NCBI RefSeq assembly: GCF_003790525.1
Contig: NZ_CP033635.1
Length of the DNA: 64,000 bases
Reading direction: 5' to 3' (one strand)
Source of the DNA: Escherichia coli
GTDB taxonomy: Bacteria; Pseudomonadota; Gammaproteobacteria; Enterobacterales; Enterobacteriaceae
In this document: positions 21,597-61,649 of the stretch, piece after piece
Layout of the letters: every line of letters starts with the position of its first letter
How positions within the stretch are numbered: the first letter of the stretch is position 1
Position numbers and translations under genes: made by a program
Notes under the pieces: model-generated
The model's input: only the letters and a program-made list of their open reading frames with translations
Told to the model about the DNA's origin: nothing
Database searches by the model: none

Positions 21597-23436
<1,840 letters not shown>

Positions 23437-23464
23437 ATCCTTTTCAGCCGCGTAATGGCTTGTT

Positions 23465-23480
23465 TGCAAAGCGGATGCCA
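23465..23480 (-). promoter_or_regulatory. Sigma54 (-24/-12) promoter element for the rut operon
   Basis: Minus-strand TGGCAT-ccgct-TTGCA with consensus GG/GC spacing, about 30 bp upstream of the rutA ATG. Confidence 0.55.
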
Positions 23481-46717: not shown

Positions 46718-47875
46718 TTAACGGGCTGGTGCTTTATCGTTCTCACGCTTAACAACCGGTTTACCAGAGAACAAAAACTTCAGTAACGGGATGCGTAAAT
46801 GAATTTCATACAGAATTATCGCAATCCCTACTACGAATATCAGGCCACAGAGAAAACCAAGCCAGTTGGAGGTGATGTGCGGTGTAATGTACGCGCCGAA
46901 AAACAGCGTTAACGGGTGGTGAACCAGATAGATAAACAGCGATGCATTAACAAAGTAAGTCACCCGCGCTGACTGGAAGTTAAGCAAACGGTGGCCGAAG
47001 GAGAAGACCACATTCACCATCCACAGACCGAGGACCATGGTGATCACAGACTCGGTTTCGTACATCCAGGCATCGCCACTGCCATAGCGCTGGTTGAGTA
47101 AGTAAGCGACAAATGCCAATGCTGCTGCAAGGGTACAGCCACGAGACGGCGTGGTAAACAAGGCTTTAAGATGAGGGAAAATGAAAGCCAGTGCGCCGAG
47201 GATAAAGAACGGCAAATAAAATAGCGTTTGCATGACAATAAAATTGAACATGCCGTTACTCAGAATGGGCGGATACACAATAAAAATCGTTCTTCTTATT
47301 ACCGCATAACCGATGCCGAGGCACAAAAAAATCACCGATAGTTTTACCATCGAGAATTTTTTATTCGTTTTATCAGAATTTTCTAAATTATTTCTGATGC
47401 GTTTAAATATCCATACGCACAGCGTCGTCATGACTACTAACACCAGTAAAAACCACAGGTGTGATATTAATTCCCAGGCCAACGTATTATATTTGTCATA
47501 CAATGACAGTCCAGGCCAACTTTCCGCTTTCCCTTTGACGTATTGCAGCATAATAAATTGCGGCAATGTCAGTAGGGGGATGGCTGTTAACATCGGGATC
47601 CCTACACGTTTGACACGTACTTTCCACCATTTTTTCAAGGGATAGCGTAAAAAAAGCATGTAGGAAAAGTACCCGGATATAACGAAAAATACCTGCATGC
47701 GGAACGAGTGGATGAAGTCATTAAAAAGGGTCAGCCATAATGACGGTTCGGCGCTATTCACATGCCATGTATGGCTCGAATAGATTAAAGAAATATGAAA
47801 AGGGATCCCTAACAACATCAGCCAGGCGCGGATGGAGTCGAGGAAATATTCACGTTGCGCGGGTACTGGGTTCAT
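46718..47875 (-). CDS. opgC: Osmoregulated periplasmic glucan succinyltransferase OpgC
   Basis: 385-aa multi-TM acyltransferase-family [37 protein letters not shown]... Confidence 0.9.
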
Positions 47876-48157
47876 ATATGGTTAACTAATCTCGGATTTT
47901 TCGTCTTATCCCTGTCGGGTTATGCCTTTAGGCTTGTTGCCATAGCGACACCGACCTGACCGCGCCAGGCGCAGGCTTCAAGGTTTTTATGCATAGCATC
48001 ATCGCTACCACTAACCAGAATGGAAGCGTCTGTAAGACGGTTGATAAATAAATTTGCTGGCAAACCCTACACGAAGTCGATGCTTCTGTCTTTAGGAGAA
48101 GCACGGAAAGTGAAAACGGTTGCAATCAGGTGCTTAATCCATGAGCCAGCGTGCTGA

Positions 48158-59889: not shown

Positions 59890-60130
59890 CATGGCCCCCT
59901 AATTCGTGTTACTAGACAACGTTATTCGAGGTTCAATGCGTTTTTATCTGAAGCAACTTCAGTATACCAATAAGTAAGGGTATTCACCGAATTTTTAAAG
60001 GGGGGAACAGATAAATTTCTGCTTTTAAGATTTATATGAACAATAAAACAGCATGTCATTCATATTTTTTTAGCATATTGTGCAATTATTTTGAGGAAGT
60101 GTAGAAATTTTGTACTCACAATTCGCAAGT

Positions 60131-60157
60131 AAAATAAAAAAGCCGGGGCGACCCGGC
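60131..60157 (-). terminator. Rho-independent terminator of dinI
   Basis: Minus strand: GCCGGGTCGCCCCGGC hairpin followed by T-run. Confidence 0.5.
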
Positions 60158-60178
60158 AAAAACAAAAATCACTGCATA

Positions 60179-60424
60179 TTATTCGCTGACAAACCAGTCA
60201 TCGGCGCTTTCCCACGTTTCCTGGAGAATTTCGCTAATGCGCTGTTTATCTTCTTTTGTTGCGCCAATAACCGATAAATTATTCGCTGCGGCATAACGTA
60301 CCGATACGTGGCCTTCATTATCAGGAAACGCATACTGAATACGGCGGGAAAGTTCGCCAGCCAGGGCGTCAATAGCCCCAGCTGGCAATGGAGAAGTTTT
60401 CGCTATGGTGACTTCAATTCGCAT
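60179..60424 (-). CDS. dinI: DNA damage-inducible protein DinI
   Basis: ATG at 60422-60424 (MRIEVTIAKTSPLPAGAIDALAGELSRRIQYAFPDNEGHVSVRYAAANNLSVIGATKEDKQRISEILQETWESADDWFVSE), 81 aa. Confidence 0.9.
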   Translation of the reverse strand: MRIEVTIAKTSPLPAGAIDALAGELSRRIQYAFPDNEGHVSVRYAAANNLSVIGATKEDKQRISEILQETWESADDWFVSE

Positions 60425-60443
60425 AATAGCCCCCTGTTGAATA

Positions 60444-60462
60444 TACTGGTTATTTATACAGG
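60444..60462 (-). promoter_or_regulatory. LexA (SOS) box in the dinI promoter
   Basis: Minus strand CCTGTATAAATAACCAGTA, matching CTGT-N8-ACAG-type SOS box, about 20 bp upstream of the dinI ATG. Confidence 0.65.
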
Positions 60463-60497
60463 CAAAATAACCTAATGACAACAGGAAGCTACGATTT

Positions 60498-61544
60498 TTA
60501 TTGTTTAACGGACCAGCGTACCGTTTCCCCAGCGAGGAATGGCACCAGGGTGTCATCAGTCAGTGCGATGCTTTCAGCAACCTGTTGCTCTTCACGTACC
60601 AGTTCGATGAATGTGTCGTTGACCGGCAAGCCATAGAACTGCGGGCCGTTTACAGAACAGAATGCTTCAAAGTGCTGCAAAGCATTCATCTCTTCAAAGA
60701 CGGTAGCGTAACTGCCCAGCGCGGTTGGGGCGTTGAAACAGCCCGCGCAGCCGCAGCTGCTCTCTTTGCGATGACGTGCATGTGGCGCAGAATCCGTTCC
60801 GAGGAATACACGATTAAAACCGCTGGCGACCAGTTCACGCAATGCCTGTTGGTGGATATTGCGTTTGAGGATGGGTAGACAATACAGGTGCGGACGCACG
60901 CCACCAACCAGCATATGGTTGCGGTTAAACATCAGATGCTGCGGAGTGATGGTGGCAGCCAGCCGTTCATTTCCGTCACGGACATAGTCGGCAGCATCTT
61001 TGGTGGTGATGTGCTCAAAAACGACTTTCAGCGCAGTCAGACGCTGGCGTAGCGGTTCCATCACGCTTTCTATAAAGCGCGCTTCACGATCAAAAATGTC
61101 GATATCTGCATGTGTCACTTCACCATGCACCAGTAGCGGCATACCGATTTTTTCCATGCGCTCAAGTACCGGCATGATTGCGTCAACTGACGTAACGCCG
61201 TGGCTGGAGTTAGTGGTTGCGTTTGCCGGATAAAGTTTTGCAGCGGTGAACACGCCTTCGTTAAATCCGCGCTCCAGCTCATTAGGATCCAGCGAATCTG
61301 TTAAATAACAGGTCATCAGCGGGGTGAAATCGTGCCCGGCAGGTACGGCGTCAAGAATGCGCTGGCGATACGCCACGGCAGCCTCAACGGTGGTCACGGG
61401 CGGAGCCAGATTGGGCATTACGATAGCCCGTCCATAAATTTCGCTGGTATACGGCACGACAGTTTTTAACATGTCGCCATCGCGGAGGTGAAGGTGCCAG
61501 TCGTCTGGGCGGCGGATCTTTAATACCTGGGATGGTGCAGTCAT
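60498..61544 (-). CDS. pyrC: Dihydroorotase PyrC
   Basis: 348-aa [49 protein letters not shown]... Confidence 0.95.
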
Positions 61545-61649
61545 TAATCTCTATGCTCCGGCTGAAGGGATGTTTTTGCCGGACACAAAGGATAAGCGGA
61601 AACGTTTTCCTTTGCACGAAAAATAAAGGGCGCGAATGCGCCCTCGTGA

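Follow-up and report, generated by a model that had tools for sequence, protein, structure and literature searches.

The window analysed here is a 64,000-nucleotide stretch of Escherichia coli DNA (contig NZ_CP033635.1), the minus strand of which carries the genes pyrC, dinI and bssS in that order; in the RefSeq annotation, yceB, pyrC, dinI, bssS and solA all lie on this strand. The small gene that the sequence-only reading had called dinI is correctly named. It appears in the list of open reading frames as a coding sequence of 81 amino acids (60179-60424, minus strand), its product matches the Pfam DinI family PF06183 with an E-value of 2e-29 and 102.1 bits (curated cut-off 24.2), and it is annotated in RefSeq as WP_001217754.1, the accession that is also given to the DinI protein of a K-12-like strain. 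A gap of 73 nt separates the pyrC stop codon (60498-60500) from the dinI ATG (60422-60424) on the minus strand, and dinI itself is followed by an intrinsic terminator, a GC-rich hairpin and then a T-run (60142-60157, minus strand). Directly upstream of pyrC lies the PyrC leader (Rfam RF02372, 68.7 bits; 61545-61594, minus strand), a known translational-control hairpin.

The window shares 100% identity with E. coli SMS-3-5 from 59900 to 60700 and 99.992% identity over its first 50 kb. Against the RefSeq sequence of SMS-3-5, one nucleotide of rutA is missing at about position 22774, as a result of which the gene is read as two minus-strand ORFs (22747-23469 and 22289-22867); this could be a genuine frameshift or a sequencing difference. 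Three more single-base differences from SMS-3-5 are found at 13049, 17094 and 37340. The torS gene (approximately 3036-5779) is a frameshifted pseudogene in the SMS-3-5 RefSeq record, which the window matches exactly throughout the interval.

The dinI locus is carried by nearly all of 5,426 complete E. coli genomes. In E. coli ST2747 (NZ_CP007394.1, 1445-1540), bssS adjoins pyrC, dinI and its operator having been deleted and, of the intergenic region, only the half nearer to pyrC left in place. Homologues of dinI also occur in phages, where we counted 162 records.

The dinI operator and promoter

Between pyrC and dinI, the sequence-only reading had reported a 19-nt LexA-type site on the minus strand. 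The sequence is present exactly as described: positions 60444-60462 read TACTGGTTATTTATACAGG on the plus strand and CCTGTATAAATAACCAGTA as the reverse complement. The 19-mer is correct as far as it goes; the full operator, however, is 20 bp long, and the outermost base had been omitted. Read directly from the minus strand, the complete SOS box is GCCTGTATAAATAACCAGTA (60444-60463), which ends 19 nt from the dinI ATG. At its centre is a dyad of the form CTG-N10-CAG, CTGTATAAATAACCAG (16 bp; 60446-60461, minus strand), the spacer of which, TATAAATAAC, has A or T at 9 of its 10 positions and is (TA)n-like. The published K-12 dinI box, ACCTGTATAAATAACCAGTA (PMC3009722 Table 4), equals the window operator at 19 of 20 positions, and the single difference falls on the outermost base, that is, outside the 19-mer originally reported.

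The operator lies over the predicted promoter. A -10 hexamer TATAAA (60453-60458, minus strand) can be read within the operator, where it is near-invariant among orthologues, and a -35 hexamer TTGTCA (60476-60481, minus strand) is predicted upstream of it across a 17-nt spacer and is kept as TTGTCA or TTGTAA in most orthologues. From promoter geometry, transcription would begin 6-7 nt past the -10 hexamer, at about 60446-60447 (minus strand), which places the start in the CAG half-site. A Shine-Dalgarno sequence, GGGGG (60430-60434, minus strand), follows and is near-invariant in the orthologues. The promoter scan tool that we applied did not report the dinI promoter; the tool demands a T at position 6 of the -10 hexamer, and the promoter, with its TATAAA, was therefore identified by eye. 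An operator placed over both the -10 hexamer and the inferred start is the classic geometry of promoter occlusion.

To place the site on a quantitative scale, we rebuilt a Berg-von Hippel matrix from 17 K-12 SOS boxes other than that of dinI (PMC3009722 Table 4). The resulting heterology index (HI-like) is 5.8 for the window site and 4.95 for the K-12 dinI allele, values that are a re-derivation and do not come from the original Lewis 1994 / Fernandez de Henestrosa matrix, but were checked against the published HI of 4.8 for the K-12 dinI box (PMC11228462), with which the figure of 4.95 agrees. Both are well below the accepted cut-off for LexA sites of HI < 15 (PMC11002266). The matrix scan that the sequence-only reading had suggested, for which a poor index was to count against the site, thus returned a strong one: of the 127,962 positions scanned across the 64 kb, the dinI site ranks first, ahead of the next independent site at 10.5.

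The intergenic DNA here is AT-rich, and one might ask whether the site could be a chance palindrome with no regulatory role. In favour of this reading, the window holds 7 copies of the loose pattern CTGT-N9-CAG where 5.08 are expected, which is not above chance, and weak LexA-like matches are also found inside genes, for example at 19560-19579 in rutF. The loose pattern being unenriched, a weighted score is required, and on such a score the picture is different: among 300 dinucleotide-preserving shuffles of the window, none reached 5.8 or lower (mean best score 11.3, lowest 6.55). Together with a core that does not vary among the 80 orthologues and keeps a fixed spacing, a published site that is identical save for one outer base, and published LexA-dependent induction, this leaves a chance origin next to impossible.

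A search of the window for the perfect consensus TACTGTATATATATACAGTA with up to three mismatches found nothing, because the dinI site has five mismatches to TACTG(TA)5CAGTA; this number of departures from the perfect palindrome is normal for genuine SOS boxes, for which a search of this kind says little. The weak LexA-like matches in the window, with HI-like values of 10.5-13.8, include 19560-19579 (in rutF, the best of them), 47864-47883, 35138-35157, 10697-10716 and 9090-9109. We judged these to be chance matches; those of them that score best lack an intact CTG or CAG half-site.

Conservation of the operator and a polymorphism at its outermost base

Orthologous loci were collected by taking one genome per species, which gave 80 loci from about 25 enterobacterial genera, among them Escherichia, Citrobacter, Salmonella, Enterobacter, Lelliottia, Kosakonia, Kluyvera, Atlantibacter, Cedecea, Buttiauxella and Trabulsiella. 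Synteny is close to complete, with pyrC upstream in 80 of 80 loci and bssS downstream in 78, the other two contigs ending earlier. All 80 loci keep NNCTG-N10-CAGNN, and their common pattern is CTGTATA.A....CAG: the species representatives have the same base at each of box positions 3-9, 11 and 16-18 and vary at positions 1, 2, 14 and 15, within an intergenic alignment around the box that has a mean column identity of 73%. The distance to the gene is likewise maintained, the gap between box and ATG being 19 nt in 65 of the 80 loci and 18-21 nt in 76.

The remaining four loci are exceptions in spacing, produced by insertions between the box and the Shine-Dalgarno sequence, and the box is retained in every one of them. 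In two Buttiauxella loci (approximately 1365-1490), an insertion of about 125 nt puts the operator 145 nt from the ATG; the inserted sequence appears to be similar to an enterobacterial repetitive intergenic consensus (ERIC)/IRU repeat. In two Trabulsiella loci (approximately 1455-1497), an insertion of about 40 nt brings with it a new Shine-Dalgarno sequence, and the operator is 60-62 nt from the ATG.

As the operator and the promoter overlap, such conservation might in principle reflect the core promoter of dinI only, that is, the -10 hexamer and the start site, with no repressor site involved. TATAAA does form part of the box and should be kept regardless: the hexamer corresponds to box positions 6-11, five of which are invariant, with A at position 10 in 73 of 80 orthologues. 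The invariant CTG (positions 3-5) and CAG (positions 16-18), however, form the dyad that defines a LexA site, are unchanged in 80 of 80 loci and fall outside the -10 hexamer, so promoter conservation alone is insufficient to explain the footprint. Positions 14-15, which lie between the -10 hexamer and the CAG, vary freely. Published experiments point the same way, in that LexA occupies the Klebsiella box by ChIP, and in that AZT raises expression of E. coli dinI 49-fold, with a 39-fold dependence on LexA cleavage, as measured with lexA3 (PMC11228462). We consider a promoter without a repressor site highly improbable.

Two further studies place dinI in the damage response: dinI is among the UV-induced genes that have a common upstream LexA motif (PMC3009722), and ciprofloxacin raises its expression by a log2 fold change of 3.7 (PMC11002266). 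The link to the SOS regulon that had been drawn from the sequence is thus sound, given the 19/20 match to K-12, a box in 80 of 80 orthologues and published LexA-dependent induction. We conclude that 60444-60463 (minus strand) is almost certainly the LexA operator of chromosomal E. coli dinI. Sequence, score, position relative to promoter and ATG, and conservation were all observed here; for LexA binding and damage induction we rely on published work. This operator is already known, and is ordinary, textbook SOS biology. The K-12 site was reportedly first defined, and its binding by LexA in vitro demonstrated, in the studies of Lewis et al. (1994) and Yasuda et al. (1996). Its confirmation mainly validates the sequence-only reading and the annotation of the window.

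Under the familiar scheme, a LexA dimer on the CTG-N10-CAG dyad covers the -10 hexamer and the inferred start site and so blocks RNA polymerase in undamaged cells. Upon DNA damage, filaments of RecA on ssDNA trigger self-cleavage of LexA; the operator is then vacated and dinI strongly transcribed, and the DinI made in turn modulates RecA filaments, an activity that is documented for the protein (PMC6590174).

The one base at which the window departs from K-12 is box position 1 (60463, minus strand), which is G here and A in K-12 (C and T, respectively, on the plus strand). In an alignment with a K-12-like strain, this position is the sole difference in the entire interval from the pyrC stop to dinI. 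Among approximately 5420 complete E. coli genomes, exact matching of a 76-mer recovered the G allele in 227 and the K-12 allele in 3741, which puts the share of G at about 4%.

Could the G allele weaken LexA binding and raise basal dinI expression, and so constitute a functionally distinct operator variant? The direction of the predicted change agrees with this: G costs 0.85 HI units on our matrix, the range of the increase being 0.85-1.1, and it is the minority allele in E. coli by the counts above. Yet no other position of the box is as little constrained as position 1 (A in 65 of the 80 species, G in 12, T in 3), variation there extends to the bona fide K-12 operators of the training set, among which the polB box begins with G, and an HI of 5.8 remains well inside the range of strong sites. 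A distinct variant is on these grounds unlikely, and the replacement of A by G at the outermost base probably has little effect. What the comparison adds to knowledge of the operator is modest, namely a natural G/A polymorphism at its outermost base, with G recurring in other genera.

A predicted hairpin that may mask the dinI Shine-Dalgarno sequence

The interval that holds the operator also has a marked predicted RNA structure. When RNA of 60415-60505 (minus strand) is folded, an outer stem of 14 bp and an inner one of 8 bp form, with a free energy of -27.7 kcal/mol and a z of -4.99. The 5' arm of the predicted fold, an anti-Shine-Dalgarno segment, is GUAGCUUCCUGUUG (60479-60492, minus strand) and overlaps the -35 hexamer; the 3' arm, CAACAGGGGGCUAU (60426-60439, minus strand), holds the dinI Shine-Dalgarno sequence. 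The palindrome of the operator sits in the loop of this long-range hairpin. Among the 55 gene starts in the window, that of dinI has both the lowest z and the lowest Shine-Dalgarno accessibility, with a P(unpaired) of 0.001, and the structure upstream of dinI is more extreme than that of pyrC, for which a leader hairpin is known.

Because the 5' arm overlaps the -35 hexamer, both arms can occur together only in pyrC read-through RNA. We scanned the interval from the pyrC stop to dinI (60425-60500) for intrinsic terminators and found none that was terminator-like, the sole one on the same strand being that after dinI, so transcription of pyrC may continue into dinI. This raises the possibility of a second role for the region, at the RNA level and compatible with the operator, in which the C-rich segment at the -35 hexamer would pair with the Shine-Dalgarno sequence and start of dinI in pyrC read-through transcripts.

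Several observations besides stability and the open path from pyrC favour such a role. Of 81 orthologous sequences, 70 have at least four guanines of the Shine-Dalgarno sequence paired to bases that lie 5' of the box and 10 more have three, and the C-run of the 5' arm is conserved in the orthologues. Median P(unpaired) of the Shine-Dalgarno sequence is 0.02 in RNA of the read-through type (-85 to +40) against 0.34 in RNA that begins at the inferred transcription start. Variation in the 5' arm includes C-to-U changes that preserve G-U pairs, and two outer pairs of the stem have compensatory changes.

Other observations weigh against it. Covariation is weak: in an explicit test of the stem, 74% of cells were paired and only those two of 13 pairs had changed on both sides; 0 of 500 shuffles reached the covariation score, but most columns are simply conserved, and RNAalifold run on a 75-sequence alignment did not predict the long-range stem. 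With the 5' arm sharing bases with the -35 hexamer and the 3' arm being the Shine-Dalgarno sequence, each could owe its conservation to that fact alone. Searches of the literature for pyrC-dinI read-through or for a terminator returned nothing relevant, the hairpin being undescribed in the searchable literature, and no Rfam family matches the dinI 5' region. On balance, we regard a role at the RNA level as possible, though rather doubtful.

If the role is real, the hairpin might serve as a translational insulator: transcripts reading through from pyrC would carry both arms and have translation of dinI blocked, and transcripts from the LexA-controlled promoter would lack the 5' arm and be translatable, so that dinI would be masked in the former and translated only from the latter. 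We offer this model of the fold tentatively, and would sooner question it than assert it. The hairpin is the only element of the dinI region that might be new. Were the model correct, synthesis of DinI would be strictly SOS-dependent despite the lack of a terminator after pyrC, and a hairpin of this kind would be a simple and general means by which a gene under tight repression could stay unaffected when transcription runs in from an upstream gene that lacks a terminator.

Comparison with known systems

The nearest counterpart to the locus described here is that of K-12, with which it shares gene order, the DinI protein, 19 of 20 operator bases, the -35 and -10 hexamers and the spacer between them, and the Shine-Dalgarno sequence. 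The two differ at operator position 1, where K-12 has A and the window has the G that is a minority allele in E. coli.

In Salmonella enterica, a spacing of 19 bp between box and ATG is found for dinI and for each of the three copies of dinI on the Gifsy prophages (PMC8072944). These loci resemble the window in their single strong box at this spacing and in being strongly induced by DNA damage (PMC8072944). The Salmonella box, AACTGTATATATATACAGTA, is however nearer to the consensus than that of the window, and the Gifsy-1/2/3 prophage copies are paralogues at other loci. In our own sample, the box of the S. enterica arizonae orthologue has a score of 0.94 and the same spacing.

The dinI gene of Klebsiella pneumoniae likewise has a LexA box that overlaps the transcription start, which has been mapped in that species, and occupancy of the box by LexA in ChIP falls upon treatment with mitomycin C; damage induction has been demonstrated there as well (PMC10907235). 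The 3' end of the Klebsiella gene also yields an sRNA, DinR, that arises by processing of a longer, genus-specific 3' UTR and targets ftsZ (PMC10907235). In the window, by contrast, the 3' UTR of dinI extends only about 20 nt to the terminator hairpin, so no seed region like that of DinR is to be expected.

For the proposed hairpin, the PyrC leader (RF02372) offers an analogue, and an analogue only. It too has a hairpin that occludes the Shine-Dalgarno sequence, and whether this hairpin forms depends on the position at which transcription starts, as would be the case at dinI. The PyrC leader, however, chooses between starts a few nucleotides apart within one promoter, whereas the choice proposed for dinI would lie between read-through from upstream and transcription from its own promoter.
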